The position numbers and the translations under genes were made by a program. From a virus (Duplodnaviria; Heunggongvirae; Uroviricota; Caudoviricetes), in the IMG/VR virus record IMGVR_UViG_2516143027_000011, positions 1-21,652 of that record: DNA of 21,652 nt, one strand, 5' to 3'. Positions 2,681 to 21,445 of this stretch are shown here, in pieces; positions within the stretch are counted from its first letter, which is position 1; every line of letters starts with the position of its first letter. A model generated the notes under the pieces. The model did no database searches, was not told the DNA's origin, and worked only from the letters and a program-made list of their open reading frames with translations.

Positions 2681-3377
2681 GAATCATTCCCTTTATTCCA
2701 TCAAGATTATCGCCAACCAGCATCATGGCTGCGGTGTAAACGGCAGACTGCTGCGGAATGTCCTTCACCAGTTCCAGTAACGTTGTGCCGGTGTCTCCGC
2801 TGGCAGTAAAAACCCACGCTCTGGCACTCTTCCCCTGTAAGTCATTCAGGCCGCTGGCCACATCACTGATAAGCTGGTCACGCAGCTGCGTGAACTCGCC
2901 CAGCTGTTTTTTCAGCCCTTCGATATCAAATCCGGCACCCGCCACCTTTTGTGCCTGGTTGATTGCCGCAGCAGATAAAGCTGCCCTGCTGGTTGGTACA
3001 GACAGTGGAATGGACGCAGGTAACGCTGCGGCGGTTTTCGCCGGGATCTGCATCTTTTCAATAGCCAGCGCTGCGGCGGATTGCGCCAGCCGTTTTACCT
3101 GCGTGAATGCCGGGGCGGGGAAAATCCCGACCAGGTTATTCAGGCTGGCCATAAAGTTTTCCTGCGTCTGTCCGGTGACCATCATAATCACCACGTCCAC
3201 ATTCCCCCCAGTTCCGGCCAGGCGTTCAGCAAGATAGCGAACAGCATTAACCGGGCTGAGATATGCCCCGTTCGCTGTCTGCTGTCCCAGCCCATAAATC
3301 CACGGATGCGCAGGGACGATCGAACAGTTCAGCGCAGCAACAGAATCCGTGAAGGCCAGACGTGCTTCACGCCACAT
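2652..3377 (-). CDS. Phage tail-associated protein of unknown function (about 241 aa)
   Basis: Start set to the internal ATG at 3377, which has a GGAGGT Shine-Dalgarno 8 nt upstream; the track start at 3413 would overlap the upstream gene by 47 nt. Function not recognised. Confidence 0.45.
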   Translation of the reverse strand: MWREARLAFTDSVAALNCSIVPAHPWIYGLGQQTANGAYLSPVNAVRYLAERLAGTGGNVDVVIMMVTGQTQENFMASLNNLVGIFPAPAFTQVKRLAQSAAALAIEKMQIPAKTAAALPASIPLSVPTSRAALSAAAINQAQKVAGAGFDIEGLKKQLGEFTQLRDQLISDVASGLNDLQGKSARAWVFTASGDTGTTLLELVKDIPQQSAVYTAAMMLVGDNLDGIKGMIHDFDPDTGA

Positions 3378-5571: not shown

Positions 5572-6165
5572 TTACAAACTCGCGCTGAATGTTGCGCTGC
5601 GGGCTTCCGTCCCTGCTAACGTCGCCGGGTAAACCACATATTCCCCCTGACCCCACCCGGCCCTGATAACCAGGCTTTCAGGCGTGATCACCTCAAACTG
5701 ATAACGGCGGCATGTTCGCCCGTACTGGCGGATTATCTGGATCAGCAGCTGCGTGTTGTCTGCAATCTGGCTGTCTGTAACCCGAACCAGAATCACATCC
5801 CAGTCGATATCCGGTTGCCGTTCGAACAGCTCCACATAACCAATTCCCAGCCGTTCAAAGATATTGATAAACCCCTCAACTGAACCAGCATCCCGCGCAT
5901 TCACGAAGGCAAAAGCCACACGTTTGCGGAACAGGGTCAACGGTTCACCATCAAAGCGGGTGATATCCCGGTCATAAGCCAGCAGGTTCAGTAATGCCGG
6001 TGTACACGTCAGCGGATCAAACTGATTCATTGGCCAGGTAATCCAGCCGTAAACCTCAGCCCAGAACCGCCGCGCCGTTTTCAGCAATTTCCCCGGTTCG
6101 CCTTTATTCATCCAGGACGGCAGGAACATCCCGGCCAGCTTTTTCATGAACTCATTCATTCTCAA
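5572..6165 (-). CDS. Phage tail protein I (P2 gpI-like baseplate protein)
   Basis: 197-aa ORF immediately downstream of the baseplate J gene, at the position and size of P2 gpI. Start could be 6165 or 6159. Confidence 0.65.
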
Positions 6166-14697: not shown

Positions 14698-15402
14698 TTA
14701 TCCTTGAGTTGTCAGTTTTCGGATACGGGCGGCAATTGTCTGCCGCGCCGTTCTGACGCCAATTTTTGAGTAGTGTTTTTCTGCAATAGCCAGCAGCTGA
14801 TCGGCTTTTTCCAGCGTTTTAATATCATCCACGCCCGCCGCCGTTTTCTGCCCATCGTCATTGCGTAGCAACTCCAGACCGGCAAACTTGAACCATTTGG
14901 CCGTCACCTGCTCATGCAGTCGCCAGGTGTTTGCCACCCGCTCAAACGTGCGGGTGAAATAAGGCTCAACACTTTCCCCGCGCCCTGCGGTTTCCTGCGC
15001 CCATTCCAGCATCGTATCCGCCACAAACGTGGGGAAATTGCTGCGCAACCGATCCGGGGTTGCCTGCTGCTGACTGATTGCAATGTCAGCCCAGTCCAGC
15101 GCCTTATCCAGATCGCCCACGTCAAACAGCCAGATAACACACCAGGCGAAAACCGGATTTGCATACACCTGGCCACTATCCAGATAGGCTTCCACAGTGG
15201 GAACCCAGCGCGGCAACAGCACATCACGTTTATACTCGACGCGATCGGCAATGGTAGGCAGACTTCGAACATGTTCCACATCCGTTTCCAGCGCCCTGAT
15301 CAGCAGGTGCATACTTTCCGTGGTTTCCAGTGCCTGGCTGCGCTTCAGCTTTTGTTCCATTGCAATACGCTGACTGTGACGCTGTGCGGGGGAAAGTGCC
15401 AT
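14698..15402 (-). CDS. Terminase small (endonuclease) subunit, P2 gpM-like
   Basis: ATG at 15402 with GGAGG Shine-Dalgarno, 3 nt after the capsid stop; position between capsid and head completion genes as in P2; size close to gpM. Confidence 0.6.
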   Translation of the reverse strand: MALSPAQRHSQRIAMEQKLKRSQALETTESMHLLIRALETDVEHVRSLPTIADRVEYKRDVLLPRWVPTVEAYLDSGQVYANPVFAWCVIWLFDVGDLDKALDWADIAISQQQATPDRLRSNFPTFVADTMLEWAQETAGRGESVEPYFTRTFERVANTWRLHEQVTAKWFKFAGLELLRNDDGQKTAAGVDDIKTLEKADQLLAIAEKHYSKIGVRTARQTIAARIRKLTTQG

Positions 15403-15405
15403 TTA

Positions 15406-16428
15406 TCAGCCCTCCACCGGTTCGGAGACTTTGCCGATTGTCACAGCGGATTCATCAATGGCTGCATACAGCTCCGGCACTTCCACCGCGTAACCTTCAT
15501 TGCGCAGGTATTTGTTTTCGAACTGCTTACGATCTTCAACAAACTCCGCCTTACGCATACGGGTATTGCGCTGGGTGTAGATGTGCAGGTTAGAAAGTGG
15601 CGTAACCACCATGCGTTTACCCGGCATAAACGGCGGGATAATGGCCTGACGGCCAGCAATGGTGCTCCCCAGCATCTGCGCAGCAATTTTTTCAGTCGGA
15701 CGGTCTGCTGCCTGATACAGTCGGTACTGTTCAGCAGCGACCAGATCGGCACCGACCAGGACAACCAGACGCGGGTCATTGCGGAACTGTGCCGGGATTT
15801 TGGCGTTAATCAGATCGGACGCCATTGCATCCAGTGACTTGTAATCCCCGGCCTCATCGAGCACCACTGGATCGGTCATAATCTGATTGCCGTCCAGCAG
15901 CGTTTTCATACGCTCATGCCAGCCAATGTTCACATCTTCACCGTTCGGGTTTGCCTCCGGATCAGTGGTTTTAGCCCGACTTTTACCATTGAAACCAATG
16001 CGCAACATGTCCAGCGCAAAAGCCTGCGTGGTGAATGCCTGTACCAGGTTGTAAAACTCGTTTTCGTCCTTACCGGCGTTTGCCCAGACAGAAAGCAGAT
16101 CCCAGCGCAGTGCGGCGCAGCTGTCTGTTTCAACCAGCGAATAGTCATTACCGTCAACGCCTACCTGACGAATAAAACGGCCATTTTCGCTGCGGCCGGT
16201 ATGCAGCACGGAAGAACCGACAGAGATCACCTGACCACTCAACTGGTCAACATCCAGACAGGTGATCATGTTCAGGAACTCGACGGACTCCAGCAACGCA
16301 AGACGCAGCGCATTTTCCTGCGGGTCATTCAGGGAAAAATATCGACTGGTATCACGCGCACCAAACTGCTGCGCCATCCCCGCCGAATATTTATCCAGTA
16401 AATCCCGCGCACGATTATTAAGGTGCAT
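15406..16428 (-). CDS. Major capsid protein, P2 gpN-like (340 aa)
   Basis: Track start 16443 is TTG; reset to ATG at 16428 with GAGGGAG Shine-Dalgarno. Recognisable similarity to P2 gpN (GFNG, GDY.SLDA and LSIY segments). Confidence 0.8.
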   Translation of the reverse strand: MHLNNRARDLLDKYSAGMAQQFGARDTSRYFSLNDPQENALRLALLESVEFLNMITCLDVDQLSGQVISVGSSVLHTGRSENGRFIRQVGVDGNDYSLVETDSCAALRWDLLSVWANAGKDENEFYNLVQAFTTQAFALDMLRIGFNGKSRAKTTDPEANPNGEDVNIGWHERMKTLLDGNQIMTDPVVLDEAGDYKSLDAMASDLINAKIPAQFRNDPRLVVLVGADLVAAEQYRLYQAADRPTEKIAAQMLGSTIAGRQAIIPPFMPGKRMVVTPLSNLHIYTQRNTRMRKAEFVEDRKQFENKYLRNEGYAVEVPELYAAIDESAVTIGKVSEPVEG

Positions 16429-16490
16429 AAAACTCCCTCGCAATTAAGCGATTTAACAATATGTTCTGGACTAATCAGCAATAAAGCGAA

Positions 16491-17294
16491 TTACAGGAAA
16501 TTAAATTTCCCGGCTTTATCTTTAATAGTACGCCCCGGTGTACGGGTGTTTTTATTACCCAGATCGTTAAAACGGGTTACGATTTCTTTTGCATTATCGC
16601 GAATTGCCGCAAATTCCTGCGTATCGACCACTTCAGCGATAGTATCAACATCACCCTGAACGTCATTCAGTTGAGTTTCAATTTTCGCCACACGCGCTTC
16701 CAGATCGTTCACCACATTGGCAAGCGCCTGTAATTTATCTTCATCCGGGGCAGGATTATCCTGCGGCGTTTCATCTTCAAACTTTGGCTTAATACCAAAC
16801 AGTTTCTGCCAGTTCTTCATTCTTGCTTCCTGTTTAATTTTTCCGTCACGGGAAATTACACAGCTGTAATATCCCTGCTTTGTTAATTTATTGCGCCGAC
16901 TACTAAAGCGCAGCCGTGTGGTGCCAACGCTAGCAGGCGTATCTGTTACCGCCAGCCCTTTCAGGTAAGTACGTCCGCTACCGCGCCAGTTTTCATCCGG
17001 CTCAATGGAGAAAAACAAAAGCTGATCTTCATGGTTGGCGAAAATCAGCCGCATATTCGGGCAAAGGCTGACATATAAACGCGCTAGTCCATCGTCACCA
17101 TCTTTCCAGGTGGCTTCCAGAACTTCGCCAAAATTACCGGAATCGTCCTCATGCTCTGGCCAGATTAATGCAACGTAATGGTTATAATCATAGGTTTCCC
17201 CCATATCTATAATCCACTGCCGTTCAATTACTCTGCCGTCAACGGTATCCCCTTCAGTAGCAACACACAGCCAGTCAGTTTTTAAATGTGACAT
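16491..17294 (-). CDS. Capsid scaffolding protein, P2 gpO-like (267 aa)
   Basis: Track start 17330 is TTG; reset to ATG at 17294 with GGGGG Shine-Dalgarno. N-terminus GDTVDGRVIERQWIIDMGETYD aligns with P2 gpO (GDTCDGRVISAQDIQEMAETFD); LKGLAVTDTPAS matches gpO LVGLAVTDDPAS. Confidence 0.8.
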   Translation of the reverse strand: MSHLKTDWLCVATEGDTVDGRVIERQWIIDMGETYDYNHYVALIWPEHEDDSGNFGEVLEATWKDGDDGLARLYVSLCPNMRLIFANHEDQLLFFSIEPDENWRGSGRTYLKGLAVTDTPASVGTTRLRFSSRRNKLTKQGYYSCVISRDGKIKQEARMKNWQKLFGIKPKFEDETPQDNPAPDEDKLQALANVVNDLEARVAKIETQLNDVQGDVDTIAEVVDTQEFAAIRDNAKEIVTRFNDLGNKNTRTPGRTIKDKAGKFNFL

Positions 17295-17376
17295 ATCCCC
17301 CCTGTTCCACTCCCTGACGCTGCAATTCAATTATTGCCAAATAAAACAGCCACTGCATTACGCTTTATTCTGAACA

Positions 17377-17401
17377 GTTCGGTTATAACGCTTTACCGAA
17401 C
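17377..17401. promoter_or_regulatory. Inverted repeat GTTCGGT-N11-ACCGAAC in the divergent scaffold/terminase intergenic region; candidate late-activator site
   Basis: Perfect 7-bp arms separated by 11 bp, centred about 67 bp upstream of the terminase ATG, with a CATAAT -10-like hexamer at 17443-17448. Not an exact match to the P2 TGT-N12-ACA element as I recall it. Confidence 0.3.
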
Positions 17402-17455
17402 AGACACGAATTAACACCACCGTTTTTTCATCACAGCCACGGCATAATTATCCGC

Positions 17456-18979
17456 ATGGCTAAATACTCTGAAGAATTAAAAGGCGTTGTTCGCGCACTT
17501 TATCTGCGCCGCTATACGCCAAAGGAAATCGCATCTGAATTAAATCTGCCGAATGCGCGGATCGTTTACTACTGGGCGGAGAAATACAGCTGGGCGGATT
17601 TGCTCAGTTTTGAAAGCACAGAGGAAGCGATTGAACGCCGTTACCAGCTGCTGGCCAGCCGCGATAACAAAACCGATCTCGACCTGAAAGAAATGGACAT
17701 GCTCATTGCTCATGCCACGAAACTGCGTGCGCAGAGTAATAAACACAAAGAGAAAATGGTCAGCGGTCAGAGTTCCGGGCAAGCAGCTGCGCGGGACAAC
17801 AATGACGACGAACCGCGCAGCAAACGGAAATACAAGAAAAACGATATTACCTCGCTGACGCAGGAGGACTTTGACGCATGGGCGGAGGAACATCTTTTTG
17901 AATATCAGAAACACCTGCGTAATAACATTGGCCAGCTTGTCAGGAACATCCTGAAAAGCCGCCAGATCGGTGCGACCTGGTATTTTGCGTTTGAAGCGTT
18001 TGAAAACGCGGTGATGACCGGCGATCCGCAAATCTTTCTGTCCGCGTCAAAGGCGCAGGCTGAAGTGTTCCGGTCTTACATCGTGAATATTGCAGAGCAG
18101 TATTTCGGTATTACGCTGACCGGCAACCCGATCCGCTTAAGCAACGGCGCAGAACTGCGTTTTCTCTCCACCAACAAAAACACCGCTCAGTCCTACAGTG
18201 GCCACCTGTACTGTGACGAATATTTCTGGGTGCCAAACTTTGCAAAACTTAACGAAGTGGCCAGCGCAATGGCCACACATGACAAGTGGCGCACCACCTA
18301 TTTTTCAACACCATCGGCAAAAACGCACCAGGCTTACCCGTTCTGGACTGGCGATGAGTGGAAACAGGGCAGTAAAAAACGTGCGGCCATTAAGTTTCCG
18401 TCCTTTAACGAAATGCGTGACGGCGGGCGACTCTGCCCGGATGGGCAATGGCGCTACGTCATTACGATGGAAGATGCCATTGCGGGCGGTTTCAACCTGG
18501 CGAACATCGAGAAACTGCGCAACCGCTACAACGACGCCACTTTTAACATGCTCTATATGTGCGTGTTCGTTGACAGCAAAGATTCCGTTTTCAGCTTTTC
18601 CGACCTGGAAGCCTGCGGCGTTGAAATCGACACCTGGCAGGATCACAACCCTGATGCAGCGCGGCCATTCGGTGACAGGCCAGTGTGGGGCGGCTTTGAC
18701 CCGGCTCGCAGCGGTGATTTGTCCTGTTTTGTCATCATCGCCCCGCCGATGTTCGTCGTGGAGAAGTTCCGCGTTCTGAAGGTGATTTACTGGAAAGGCA
18801 TGAACTTCCGATACCAGGCAAAACAGATCGAGCAGTTGTTCAAAAAATACAACTTCACTTATCTGGGGGTGGACGTTACCGGCATTGGCCAGGGTGTTTT
18901 TGACAACATTCAGCATTTTGCCATGCGCGTGGCCGTCCCTATTCGTTACGACCTAAACACCAAAATAAGCTGGTATTGA
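17456..18979 (+). CDS. Terminase large (ATPase) subunit, P2 gpP-like; reading frame ends prematurely at 507 aa
   Basis: Divergent from the scaffold gene across a 162-bp intergenic region, as in P2 (P/O). The C-terminal part continues in the -1 frame (next feature); the two pieces together are about the length of P2 gpP (about 590 aa, from memory). Confidence 0.7.
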   Translation: MAKYSEELKGVVRALYLRRYTPKEIASELNLPNARIVYYWAEKYSWADLLSFESTEEAIERRYQLLASRDNKTDLDLKEMDMLIAHATKLRAQSNKHKEKMVSGQSSGQAAARDNNDDEPRSKRKYKKNDITSLTQEDFDAWAEEHLFEYQKHLRNNIGQLVRNILKSRQIGATWYFAFEAFENAVMTGDPQIFLSASKAQAEVFRSYIVNIAEQYFGITLTGNPIRLSNGAELRFLSTNKNTAQSYSGHLYCDEYFWVPNFAKLNEVASAMATHDKWRTTYFSTPSAKTHQAYPFWTGDEWKQGSKKRAAIKFPSFNEMRDGGRLCPDGQWRYVITMEDAIAGGFNLANIEKLRNRYNDATFNMLYMCVFVDSKDSVFSFSDLEACGVEIDTWQDHNPDAARPFGDRPVWGGFDPARSGDLSCFVIIAPPMFVVEKFRVLKVIYWKGMNFRYQAKQIEQLFKKYNFTYLGVDVTGIGQGVFDNIQHFAMRVAVPIRYDLNTKISWY

Positions 18980-19230
18980 AAGCGGTGGACGTGGTGGAAA
19001 GCCAGCGTATTGAGTGGGATAAAAACCTGAAAGAGATCGCGGCCAGCTTTATGTCTGTGCGCCGAACCACCACACAAAGCGGCAATGCTATGACGTTTGT
19101 CGCTGACCGTAGCCAGGATACCGGCCACGCGGAGGCGTTCTGGGCGATTACCCACGGTCTGCATAACGAACCCCTTAACTATGAAAACAAACCTAAATCC
19201 CGCTGGGGTGTAAGGAAAGAGGCAGCATGA
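18904..19230 (+). CDS. Terminase large subunit C-terminal segment in -1 frame (frameshifted continuation; pseudogene or sequencing error)
   Basis: This frame is open from 18904 and overlaps the end of the upstream terminase ORF. It encodes ...LVLKAVDVVESQRIEWDKNLKEIAASF...ADRSQDTGHAEAFWAITHGL.... Its TGA overlaps the portal ATG (ATGA at 19227-19230). An A4 run at 18962-18965 is the likely indel site. Confidence 0.5.
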   Translation, partial: QHSAFCHARGRPYSLRPKHQNKLVLKAVDVVESQRIEWDKNLKEIAASFMSVRRTTTQSGNAMTFVADRSQDTGHAEAFWAITHGLHNEPLNYENKPKSRWGVRKEAA

Positions 19231-20288
19231 GTAAAAAGAAACGCTTTGTTAAGCGCGACCAGCGCGGCGACAAATCAAAAAAGATGAGCATTATCACATT
19301 CGGCAAACCTGAACCGGTTCTGACTACCGGCACAGATTACCGTGATATCTGGTACGACAATGCCGCCGATCACTTCACCCAGCCGATTGACCGGCTGGCA
19401 CTCGCACAACTGATTAATCTTAACGGTCAGCACGGCGGCATCATTCACGCCCGTAAAAACATGATTGTTTCAGACTATCAGGGGGGCGGGCTTATTCACG
19501 ACCAGCTGGAAGCGGCAGCGTTTGACTATATAACCTTTGGGGATATTGCGATTGCCAAAATTCGTAACGGCTGGGGCGACGTGATCGCACTTGAACCCTT
19601 GCCCGGTCTGTATATTCGCCGCCGCAAAGTCAGAGATAACGCCCAGGATAAACCCGGTGACTACGTGGTGTTACAGGAAGGGGAACCGCAGGTATGGCCA
19701 GAAGAAGATATTATCTTTATCAAAATGTATGACCCGCAACAGCATATCTACGGACTGCCGGACTACATCGGCGGTGTGCATTCCGCGTTACTTAACAGTG
19801 AAGCGGTCATTTTCCGACGCCGCTATTACCACAACGGTGCGCACACAGGCGGTATTCTTTATACCCGCGATCCCAGTATGACGGATGAAATGGAAGAAGA
19901 AATTGAACAGCAGCTGCGTGACAGCAAAGGTATCGGTAACTTCTCCACTATTCTGGTGAACATACCTGGCGGGGATGGGGATGCAATCAAGTTCATCGAA
20001 ATGGGGGATATTTCTGCAAAAGATGAATTTGCCAATATCAAAAACATCAGCGCCCAGGACATTCTGAACGCGCACCGTTTCCCTGCTGGCCTCGCCGGTA
20101 TTGTCCCGCAGAACACTGCCGGACTGGGGGATGTTGAAAAGGCTGAACGCATTTACAAGAAAAGCGAAATAGCCCCCATCCAGCGCCGTTTCATGCTGGC
20201 CGTTAACGGCGATCCCGAAATACCGAAAAGGCTACACCTTAACTTTGATTTAAGTTACACAGAATCAACGGATAAGGGTGCGGCATGA
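19227..20288 (+). CDS. Portal protein, P2 gpQ-like (353 aa)
   Basis: Strong AAGGAAAGAGG Shine-Dalgarno; follows the terminase as in P2 (P then Q); size matches gpQ. Confidence 0.7.
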   Translation: MSKKKRFVKRDQRGDKSKKMSIITFGKPEPVLTTGTDYRDIWYDNAADHFTQPIDRLALAQLINLNGQHGGIIHARKNMIVSDYQGGGLIHDQLEAAAFDYITFGDIAIAKIRNGWGDVIALEPLPGLYIRRRKVRDNAQDKPGDYVVLQEGEPQVWPEEDIIFIKMYDPQQHIYGLPDYIGGVHSALLNSEAVIFRRRYYHNGAHTGGILYTRDPSMTDEMEEEIEQQLRDSKGIGNFSTILVNIPGGDGDAIKFIEMGDISAKDEFANIKNISAQDILNAHRFPAGLAGIVPQNTAGLGDVEKAERIYKKSEIAPIQRRFMLAVNGDPEIPKRLHLNFDLSYTESTDKGAA

Positions 20289-20338
20289 GGCGAAACAGGC
20301 TAAAATCCAGGCATCATTTAACAGCTGGAGCATGGAAT

Positions 20339-20602
20339 ATGCGAGTTCTGAAAATCGAATGCCCGGAATGCGGCTCAAAGGCTGTTATTCGTAAAACGAA
20401 CAGGAAGCACCGGCAGATTGCGGATATTTACTGCGCCTGTTCAGATGTTGAGTGTGGCCATACGTTTGTTATGAATCTGACGTTCTCCCACACTCTCAGC
20501 CCCAGCGCGAAAACGGGTGATGCGATGGTGCAGATTCTACTTAACAGCCTGTCACCTTCTCAAAAACAGATGGCACTTGATTTACTGAGTAATGCTTCTT
20601 AA
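20339..20602 (+). CDS. Ogr/Delta-family zinc-finger late transcription activator (about 87 aa)
   Basis: CPECG...YCACSDVECGHTF matches the Ogr/Delta C-x2-C...C-x4-C motif (P2 Ogr: CPLCQ...YHQCQNVNCSATF). GGAG Shine-Dalgarno 8 nt upstream of ATG at 20339. An alternative start at 20285 would overlap the portal stop (ATGA). Confidence 0.65.
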   Translation: MRVLKIECPECGSKAVIRKTNRKHRQIADIYCACSDVECGHTFVMNLTFSHTLSPSAKTGDAMVQILLNSLSPSQKQMALDLLSNAS

Positions 20603-21330
20603 TCAGAATCTAATTTGGCTTTTGCTCTAATTGTTTCGATAAATTTCAATGAATCATGATTACCAAAAGCCTCTTTTTTATATGCTAGAATGATATCAGT
20701 GATTAGTTCTAAATTTCTGGCATCATCACTAAATAATGTATTAAAAGCGATATCATGTGTATAGGCATCAGGCAGGCCGTCAAGCAAGCGCCAATCCTCA
20801 ACAGGTAAATGTTCCAAAAAGGCATAACGCTCAAGCATTTTTTTATAATATGCATATGAAGATACTTTGTCTGCATGAGCAACATTTATCACTAACAGAA
20901 TCAATACTTCAAAGCTCAGAAAAGATCGAATAATACTTGTATAATATTTTCTCTTCTTATATTTAAAATCCAAAAAAGAACTTTTATCAATAAGCTTTAA
21001 TAAATGATACAACACTCTAAAGTAACTACTAAAAAACATATCCTTTTCATGCATTCGATTATTGGCTTCGCATAGAGAAAGCTCACCATGTCCGCCTCCA
21101 CCGGCTAAAACGTATGAAAATTGTGTTGAAAAATCAGAATTATTTTTTAACACATTTAGTTGTTCATTGTGTTGGGCAAGCAACAAAGAGAAATTTGAAT
21201 CAAAACGCTCCGCACGGCGATTAAAAAAAGATAACATCAAAGCAACAATGACAGAAAGAACTGTCCCTAAAGCAACAAAAAACTGTACTGCAAATTGATT
21301 ATCTTTCGCAAAATCATTCAAAGCAGACAT
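20599..21330 (-). CDS. AT-rich membrane-anchored protein of unknown function (about 243 aa); candidate accessory or defence cargo
   Basis: Base composition is markedly AT-rich compared with the phage genes. N-terminal transmembrane helix (FAVQFFVALGTVLSVIVALMLSFF) and a possible second hydrophobic segment. Convergent with the ogr-like gene, with overlapping stops. Start uncertain (21330, 21357 or 21390). Confidence 0.5.
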   Translation of the reverse strand: MSALNDFAKDNQFAVQFFVALGTVLSVIVALMLSFFNRRAERFDSNFSLLLAQHNEQLNVLKNNSDFSTQFSYVLAGGGGHGELSLCEANNRMHEKDMFFSSYFRVLYHLLKLIDKSSFLDFKYKKRKYYTSIIRSFLSFEVLILLVINVAHADKVSSYAYYKKMLERYAFLEHLPVEDWRLLDGLPDAYTHDIAFNTLFSDDARNLELITDIILAYKKEAFGNHDSLKFIETIRAKAKLDSD

Positions 21331-21445
21331 ATTAGACCTTCGCCGTTTAACTGTCATTCCATATTGCGAGCTAGCAATAATGTTGAGCATTTGTTTGGGG
21401 ACAGGGATTTTAATCCCCTAGCAGCATTTGTACAATTGGTATAAA

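Follow-up and report, generated by a model that had tools for sequence, protein, structure and literature searches.

A short intergenic region of a P2-family prophage, lying between the divergent genes for the capsid scaffolding protein (gpO) and the large terminase subunit (gpP) and referred to here as the O/P region, appears to be a single bidirectional late control region, from which the prophage's own Ogr-type activator most likely switches on both late operons. The prophage was analysed over positions 1 to 21,652 of the IMG/VR virus record IMGVR_UViG_2516143027_000011, and this whole stretch of 21,652 nucleotides is called the window. It is an ESSI-2-like prophage that shares 97% identity and the same gene order with Escherichia phage ESSI2_ev129 (Peduoviridae, Quadragintavirus; ev129 in the following) and 67-88% identity with phages of other genera (Cronobacter, Escherichia, Salmonella and Yersinia phages). 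The region is present in 29 of 5,426 complete E. coli genomes (~0.5%).

Anatomy of the O/P region

The O/P region comprises 161 bp (17295-17455), one less than stated in a first-pass annotation that was made from the sequence alone, and it begins beside the scaffold ATG (17294), which is preceded by the ribosome-binding sequence GGGGGGA. That annotation had drawn attention to a perfect 7-bp inverted repeat about 67 bp upstream of the terminase ATG and to a CATAAT hexamer without an obvious -35, and both were recovered as described. The left arm GTTCGGT occupies 17377-17383 and the right arm ACCGAAC 17395-17401, exactly where they had been placed, with an 11-nt spacer and a centre at 17389, 67 bp before the terminase start at 17456, while CATAAT lies at 17443-17448 and a consensus scan predicts no sigma-70 -35/-10 pair in 17295-17455. 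The dyad is therefore real, but the 7-bp repeat is not its unit: the central 5 bp of each arm (TTCGG and CCGAA) are conserved among relatives, the outer G/C and T/A vary (for instance GTTCGGA...ACCGAAT in S.Kent), and two further, outer half-sites belong to the element.

Taken within the window alone, the dyad is not beyond chance. A 7-bp inverted repeat anywhere in 161 bp is not rare, and a search of the window with the dyad pattern, allowing up to three mismatches, gave one match against a mean of 0.72 in shuffled sequences. Its significance comes from its conservation among relatives and not from window statistics. The features of the region are given below; geometry was counted over a combined set of 111 distinct regions and the distances between hexamers and start codons over 115 loci.

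17330-17335, minus strand: leftward (scaffold and morphogenesis) -10 hexamer AATAAT (ATTATT on the plus strand), at a conserved distance and mirroring CATAAT about 17389
17355-17357, minus strand: conserved GCA trinucleotide, read as TGC on the minus strand, within the leftward -35 region, with 0.8-1.7 bits across 31 non-redundant relatives; at best a partial -35
17368-17372, no strand assigned: outer-left half-site TTCTG (family TTCKK), 10 bp upstream of the inner-left half-site
17378-17385, no strand assigned: inner-left half-site TTCGG followed by W-T-A, the left arm of the dyad
17386-17392, no strand assigned: central spacer, variable in sequence except at the edges beside the half-sites
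17393-17400, no strand assigned: inner-right half-site T-W-A-CCGAA, the right arm of the dyad
17406-17410, no strand assigned: outer-right half-site ACGAA (family MCGAA), 10 bp downstream of the inner-right half-site
17443-17448, plus strand: rightward (terminase, portal and ogr) -10 hexamer CATAAT, at a conserved distance and without a -35
17456-17458, plus strand: terminase ATG and probable transcription start, judged from the CATAAT spacing

From 17368 to 17410 the layout reads TTCTG-N5-TTCGG-N13-CCGAA-N5-ACGAA, with 32 nt between each outer half-site and the hexamer on its side, and the whole is mirror-symmetric about 17389, the inner pair being the palindrome noticed initially. The arms of this arrangement are nearly rigid. 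The leftward hexamer (AATAAT or AATACT; ATTATT or AGTATT on the plus strand) is separated from TTCGG by 42 nt in 110 of the 111 distinct regions, and on the other side CCGAA and the rightward hexamer are 42 nt apart in 103 regions, 41 nt apart in 7 and 43 nt apart in one. The distance between TTCGG and CCGAA takes two values, 13 nt (66 regions) and 14 nt (45 regions). The outer half-sites lay outside all search patterns, and in the same set the T, T and C of the left one are conserved to 97%, 90% and 96% and the C, G, A and A of the right one to 89%, 100%, 98% and 76%. More distant relatives have a full TTCGG as the outer-left half-site. The hexamer TATAAC, which lies in the central spacer, was considered as a further -10 candidate and rejected because the spacer sequence is not conserved.

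The position of the terminase start codon separates two classes of relatives. In 107 of the 115 loci CATAAT stands 6-7 nt before the terminase ATG, and these loci lack a ribosome-binding sequence; in the other 8 the ATG follows 30-39 nt after the hexamer and AAGGAA is present, with CATAAT still 42 nt from CCGAA. As this distance is constant whatever the position of the ATG, the half-sites are placed relative to the promoter and not to the reading frame. The spacing suggests that the terminase mRNA of the window's class is probably leaderless and starts at or beside the ATG, and the leftward -10 hexamer would place the start of the opposite transcript at ~17323, giving a leader of ~29 nt.

Conservation of the core among relatives

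The first-pass annotation had offered the dyad as a lineage-specific activator site, and we looked for it in the equivalent region of relatives, starting once from the protein and once from the DNA. An alignment of the Ogr clade searched against one genome per species (185,579 species) yielded 80 loci, of which 47 contained both O and P and gave 46 distinct intergenic sequences. The core TTCGG-N13/14-CCGAA is exact in 36 of these 46 O/P regions and has one mismatch in 6 more, so that 42 of the 46 carry it. In the six variants one arm reads GCGAA, TCGAA or CCGCA and the other arm never compensates, which argues for conservation of the sequence and not of base pairing. The four remaining regions are the most distant loci (Ogr at 40-57% identity), with dyads that are partial or different.

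A blind scan of viral contigs with the pattern TTCGGNTA-N10/11-CCGAA-N41-43-CATAAT returned at least 120 matches. Among the matches listed, 117 of 120 are O/P intergenic regions, and an Ogr-clade gene follows terminase and portal at 57 of the 59 O/P loci with at least 3.7 kb of downstream sequence. Conservation of the core extends over several phage genera and a wide range of enterobacterial hosts, and in every close and moderately distant relative examined the exact core is single and in the same place. Each of four complete genomes (ev129, ESSI-2, ev239 and YenM324) has it once, where 0.07 would be expected per 31 kb. A looser half-promoter pattern was likewise found at this locus only; ev129, ESSI-2 and the window have it once per strand, ev239 and YenM324 on one strand. 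P2 has no TTCGG-type motif nor anything close to it, and the proposal of a lineage-specific candidate site is well in line with these results.

We also searched the window and the four complete relatives for further copies of the dyad with up to two mismatches, and flanking -10 hexamers were found only at the O/P site; the one-mismatch matches elsewhere occur at the chance rate and lie inside genes. Nor does the O/P intergenic region contain a P2-type TGT-N12-ACA element, which the dyad had already been noted not to match, the four matches elsewhere in the window being at chance level.

More distant loci, from Pseudomonas, Azotobacter and one member of the Desulfovibrionales, have the same gene order and other dyads. 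In Pseudomonas flexibilis (L070) and Azotobacter vinelandii (L071), where O is followed by P, Q and ogr in the same arrangement, the O/P regions have no TTCGG element and contain other dyads instead, such as GCGCGAAATTCCTA-N11-TAGGAAATTCGCGC, together with the hexamer TAGAYT 3 nt upstream of the terminase start codon. These two loci hint that site and activator may diverge together.

Two kinds of incomplete element were encountered as well. A contig from an uncultured Enterobacteriaceae metagenome-assembled genome (L050) has kept TTCGG-N13-CCGAA (5743-5765) and the leftward -10 hexamer and has not kept the rightward hexamer. Tail terminator, sheath, tube, lysis and tape-measure genes lie beside its ogr, and scaffold, capsid, terminase and portal were not found within 12 kb on a contig that is far longer; it may be a tailocin-like derivative. 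The second kind comprises satellite-like islands (L047, L048, L049, L051, L053, L056 and L062-L064). In L047 a Pfam scan identified an integrase, a primase-helicase, Ash, an Ogr-clade protein, a P2-family capsid and a truncated GPO scaffold, with a GmrSD-type nuclease adjoining, and the other islands were grouped with it by tblastn, having a P2-type capsid, an Ogr-clade gene and, in some, a partial scaffold. Within 12 kb these islands contain no terminase or portal and no TTCGG-type site, the promoter of the capsid gene lying beyond that distance.

A candidate Ogr activator and its alternatives

The presumed activator is encoded downstream of the portal gene, where the first-pass annotation had already recognised an Ogr/Delta-family zinc-finger protein at 20339-20602.

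20285-20602, plus strand: Ogr/Delta zinc-finger protein, the candidate activator (PF04606); short form of 87 amino acids from 20339
20301-20306, plus strand: TAAAAT, a probable separate ogr -10 hexamer at the end of the portal/ogr overlap region, recognised by nucleotide conservation

The protein matches PF04606 with 70.8 bits (cut-off 26.3; E = 8.9e-20) and PHROG 603, 'transcriptional regulator', with E = 7e-39, and its zinc motif CX2CX22CX4C (C8, C11, C34 and C39 in the 87-amino acid form) is intact and invariant in an alignment that includes P2 Ogr. It shares its small size, domain, zinc motif and residence in a P2-family element with the other members of the Ogr/Delta family (P2 Ogr, P4 Delta, 186 B, PSP3 Pag and Serratia NucC). 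The other named members of the family recognise sites of the TGT-N12-ACA type. Identity is 68-90% within the clade and 25% to P2 Ogr, from which the window protein further differs by a C-terminal extension of ~25 residues and a possible N-terminal extension of 18 residues. The latter would result from an in-frame ATG at 20285, which overlaps the portal stop codon (ATGA) and would give a long form of 105 amino acids; the 18-codon upstream extension is an open frame in nearly all phage relatives, and database records differ on the start. No solved structure for the Ogr/Delta family was detectable by sequence search.

In 63 of 70 distinct relatives the TAAAAT hexamer is found 38 nt upstream of the internal ogr ATG (20339). 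It does not vary at synonymous codon positions even though the encoded residue changes, and a conserved GGAG (20327-30) follows it. This pattern suggests that TAAAAT is probably a dedicated ogr promoter supplying the first Ogr. In P2, likewise, ogr has a promoter of its own and is also reached by late read-through transcription. In ev129 we further noticed a hairpin with a T-run after ogr and a LexA-box-like sequence, CTGTATATAAACACAG (L001, 20662-20677), which separates the replication gene from gp27, a small gene that follows ogr.

The leftward late cluster is contiguous over ~17 kb, from the scaffold gene to about position 432, and carries morphogenesis and lysis functions from scaffold to baseplate, whereas the rightward genes in this lineage are terminase, portal and ogr. 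As the non-coding gaps inside the leftward cluster measure only 47-65 bp, the O/P region is the sole sizeable late intergenic region.

We consider the following scheme the most likely explanation, its steps being read as a model. Two divergent activator-dependent promoters, each with a good -10 and no usable -35, would be served by the prophage's Ogr (20339-20602) binding the four helically phased half-sites as two mirrored modules, each a tandem pair of half-sites centred at about -53 (-55 in P2). Ogr would bring RNA polymerase to both promoters by way of the alpha subunit, in the manner of P2 Ogr at the shared pO/pP site. The leftward transcript, ~17 kb long, would take in the genes for scaffold, capsid, small terminase, tail, lysis and baseplate without a further intergenic control region, and the rightward transcript would begin leaderless at the terminase ATG and run through portal into ogr, closing a positive feedback loop that the separate TAAAAT promoter (20301-20306) would prime with the first Ogr. 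We infer Ogr as the binding protein from its position and its co-occurrence with the site, and the stoichiometry and the alpha-subunit contact in this scheme are inferred as well. The late-promoter role originally suggested for the dyad agrees with its position and with a -10 that lacks a -35, and is refined in that the site would serve both promoters and not the terminase promoter alone.

This organization resembles the arrangement described for P2, in whose record a single 'activator binding site; pO, pP promoters' (3057-3087) is annotated. The P start (3016) and the O start (3127) flank this site, whose centre is 55 and 56 bp away from them. The late-promoter consensus of P2 is TGT-N12-ACA, and in phage Smp131 the PP' and PO' elements have the same coordinates on opposite strands (PMC3931495). 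In both P2 and the window, one central symmetric element lies between the divergent O and P genes and two divergent promoters, -10 sequences are present without a -35, and an Ogr/Delta zinc-finger activator is encoded in the same genome; P2 also provides a precedent for a leaderless late mRNA in gene V, whose transcription start is recorded on the first base of the gene. The two also differ. The window has TTCGG-N13/14-CCGAA where P2 has TGT-N12-ACA, four half-sites at 10-bp phasing against one dyad, predicted starts 133 bp apart against 111 bp, -10 hexamers near consensus against weak ones, and one late control region against four late promoters, and its ogr follows the portal gene, whereas in P2 it comes after gene D. 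A 9-mer, ATAAGCCAT, occurs both in the pO/pP activator site of P2 (L007, 3057-3087) and in the central spacers of several ESSI-2-like relatives (L010, L016, L018 and L037; for example TTCGGTTATAAGCCATTACCGAA), in an orientation relative to the genes that is opposite in P2 and in the ESSI-2-like relatives; the spacer of the window is without it.

Divergent class I promoters such as those served by CRP are similar in layout only, with a symmetric upstream element, back-to-back promoters and helically compatible distances, and differ in protein family and recognition sequence; on direct reading no CRP-like TGTGA-N6-TCACA is visible in the region.

Within the scheme of Ogr activation, the number of modules can be arranged differently. 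One symmetric Ogr dimer could occupy the inner dyad TTCGG-N13-CCGAA and serve both promoters from about -66, the outer half-sites being incidental or auxiliary, and for this the single dyad common to pO and pP in P2 is a precedent. In its favour, too, conservation is highest at the inner half-sites and continues into the spacer as W-T-A and T-W-A. We regard this arrangement as rather unlikely. The centre may be 13 or 14 nt long, whereas the 42-nt arms and the gap of 5 nt from outer to inner half-site hardly vary, which favours two mirrored modules over a single symmetric dimer; the outer TTC and CGA reach 89-100% conservation although no search selected for them; and the distance between the starts exceeds that of P2 by two extra helical turns, matching the two extra half-sites.

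Several observations weigh against Ogr activation at this site altogether. The site does not match the published P2 element, and the centre of its inner dyad lies at about -66/-67 from starts that are placed solely by -10-like hexamers, and not at -55. The co-occurrence of Ogr and site partly reflects the synteny of a single phage lineage; any other lineage-conserved protein, or a host factor, would therefore show it as well. The satellite-like islands encode an Ogr of the same clade (55-62% identity) and have no site within the 12 kb examined, which means that an Ogr-clade protein is not always accompanied by a nearby site. Finally, a circuit in which ogr depended on the rightward late promoter alone could not start, and the TAAAAT promoter that would remedy this is itself a putative one. 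The head-less remnant that retained the dyad, the leftward hexamer and ogr counts in favour of Ogr activation.

Alternatively, the four half-sites could be a conserved operator for another protein, with Ogr working elsewhere or indirectly. Such a protein might be a global regulator of the host or a different phage product, and it might activate the late genes or silence them as a repressor. A sequence unlike the known Ogr element, a dyad centre ~11 bp further upstream than in P2 and the islands that possess a related Ogr and lack the site would all suit such an operator. We nevertheless judge it improbable: the site is restricted to the O/P region of this lineage, once per genome, in the position of the P2 Ogr site; both promoters lack a -35 and so call for an activator and not a repressor; Ogr is the only recognisable late activator encoded; and no LexA-type box is present in the window. 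An operator for the immunity repressor or Cox was considered specifically and rejected, because in ev129 the repeats of the early Pe/Pc control region are of another kind and TTCGG-type half-sites are absent from it.

A DNA-packaging (cos-related) or replication site is very improbable. The adjoining terminase gene may bring such a function to mind, and the cos site of the lineage was not located here, but the exact 42-nt distance to the -10 hexamers on both sides speaks for a promoter element, the cos site of P2 lies beyond the portal gene and not between O and P, and the remnant L050, within 12 kb of which terminase and capsid genes are absent, keeps the site beside its tail genes. It is hardly credible that the inverted repeat functions as a hairpin in RNA, for example as a terminator, an attenuator or a small RNA. 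A 7-bp stem with a minimum free energy of -9.8 kcal/mol could form, but its folding z-scores are only -1.9 and -1.1, its loop would have 11 nt, no U-tract follows the stem and no Rfam match was found. The variants disrupt pairing with no compensating change, each arm is conserved in sequence, and the element lies upstream of both predicted starts.

The surrounding prophage and the meaning of the element

The genes next to the control region are head genes of a P2-family prophage:

14698-15402, minus strand: small terminase subunit (Pfam)
15406-16443, minus strand: P2-family capsid protein (Pfam)
16491-17294, minus strand: gpO capsid scaffolding protein (PF05929, E = 1.7e-35), leading the leftward late cluster
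17456-19230, plus strand: gpP terminase large subunit, frameshifted (Pfam Terminase_6N, Terminase_6C and Terminase_5)
19227-20288, plus strand: gpQ portal protein (PF04860), with 99% identity to the ev129 portal

The gpP gene is split into two open reading frames, 17456-18979 and 18976-19230, by a one-base deletion in the A-run at 18962-18965 (within 18958-18970), where the window has four A residues and both ev129 and contig L008 have five. The deletion is either a sequencing error or an inactivating mutation, and in the latter case the prophage could not package DNA. Contig L008 (JAEWTL010000126.1), which comes from a metagenome-assembled genome labelled 'Bacillota bacterium', has an O/P region identical to that of the window and an intact terminase, and is most likely a mis-binned enterobacterial prophage contig. 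At the other end of the rightward genes, a 263-amino acid protein with a putative abortive-infection domain (20599-21390, minus strand; PF16872, putAbiC; PHROG 38218) occupies the place that a small hypothetical gene has in ev129, and it is probably the product of a cargo or defence gene with which the late region ends.

Late activation by Ogr from a shared O/P site is established in P2, and the present element is thus an extension of that system and not a surprise. The layout as such is known, as P2 likewise has one activator site common to the divergent pO and pP; the novelty lies in the recognition sequence, in the presence of four half-sites and in there being one control region in each genome. 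We found no description of a TTCGG-type element in the searchable literature, whose coverage of the classic P2 papers is thin. DNA recognition by the Ogr family is poorly defined, the P2 element being a loose dyad, and this lineage offers a sharper target: its 5-bp half-sites are invariant, its arms are fixed at 42 nt, each genome has one site, and natural variants number in the hundreds. By virtue of these properties, binding mode, stoichiometry and promoter geometry become directly testable.

The consensus can also serve as an annotation signature for the ESSI-2-like late control region in Escherichia, Salmonella, Cronobacter, Enterobacter, Yersinia, Serratia, Xenorhabdus and related hosts, and the signature fits tail-only remnants too, which are maybe tailocins.

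A more far-reaching interpretation, which we put forward tentatively and at less than even confidence, is that this divergent Ogr clade reads a sequence with no relation to the classical TGT-N12-ACA, as two mirrored tandem units on four half-sites in helical phase, so that one compact 43-bp element would fire the whole late programme in both directions, including a leaderless terminase mRNA and the activator's own gene. If this is true, the late genes of these phages would be governed by a self-reinforcing, all-or-none switch with a single control point.

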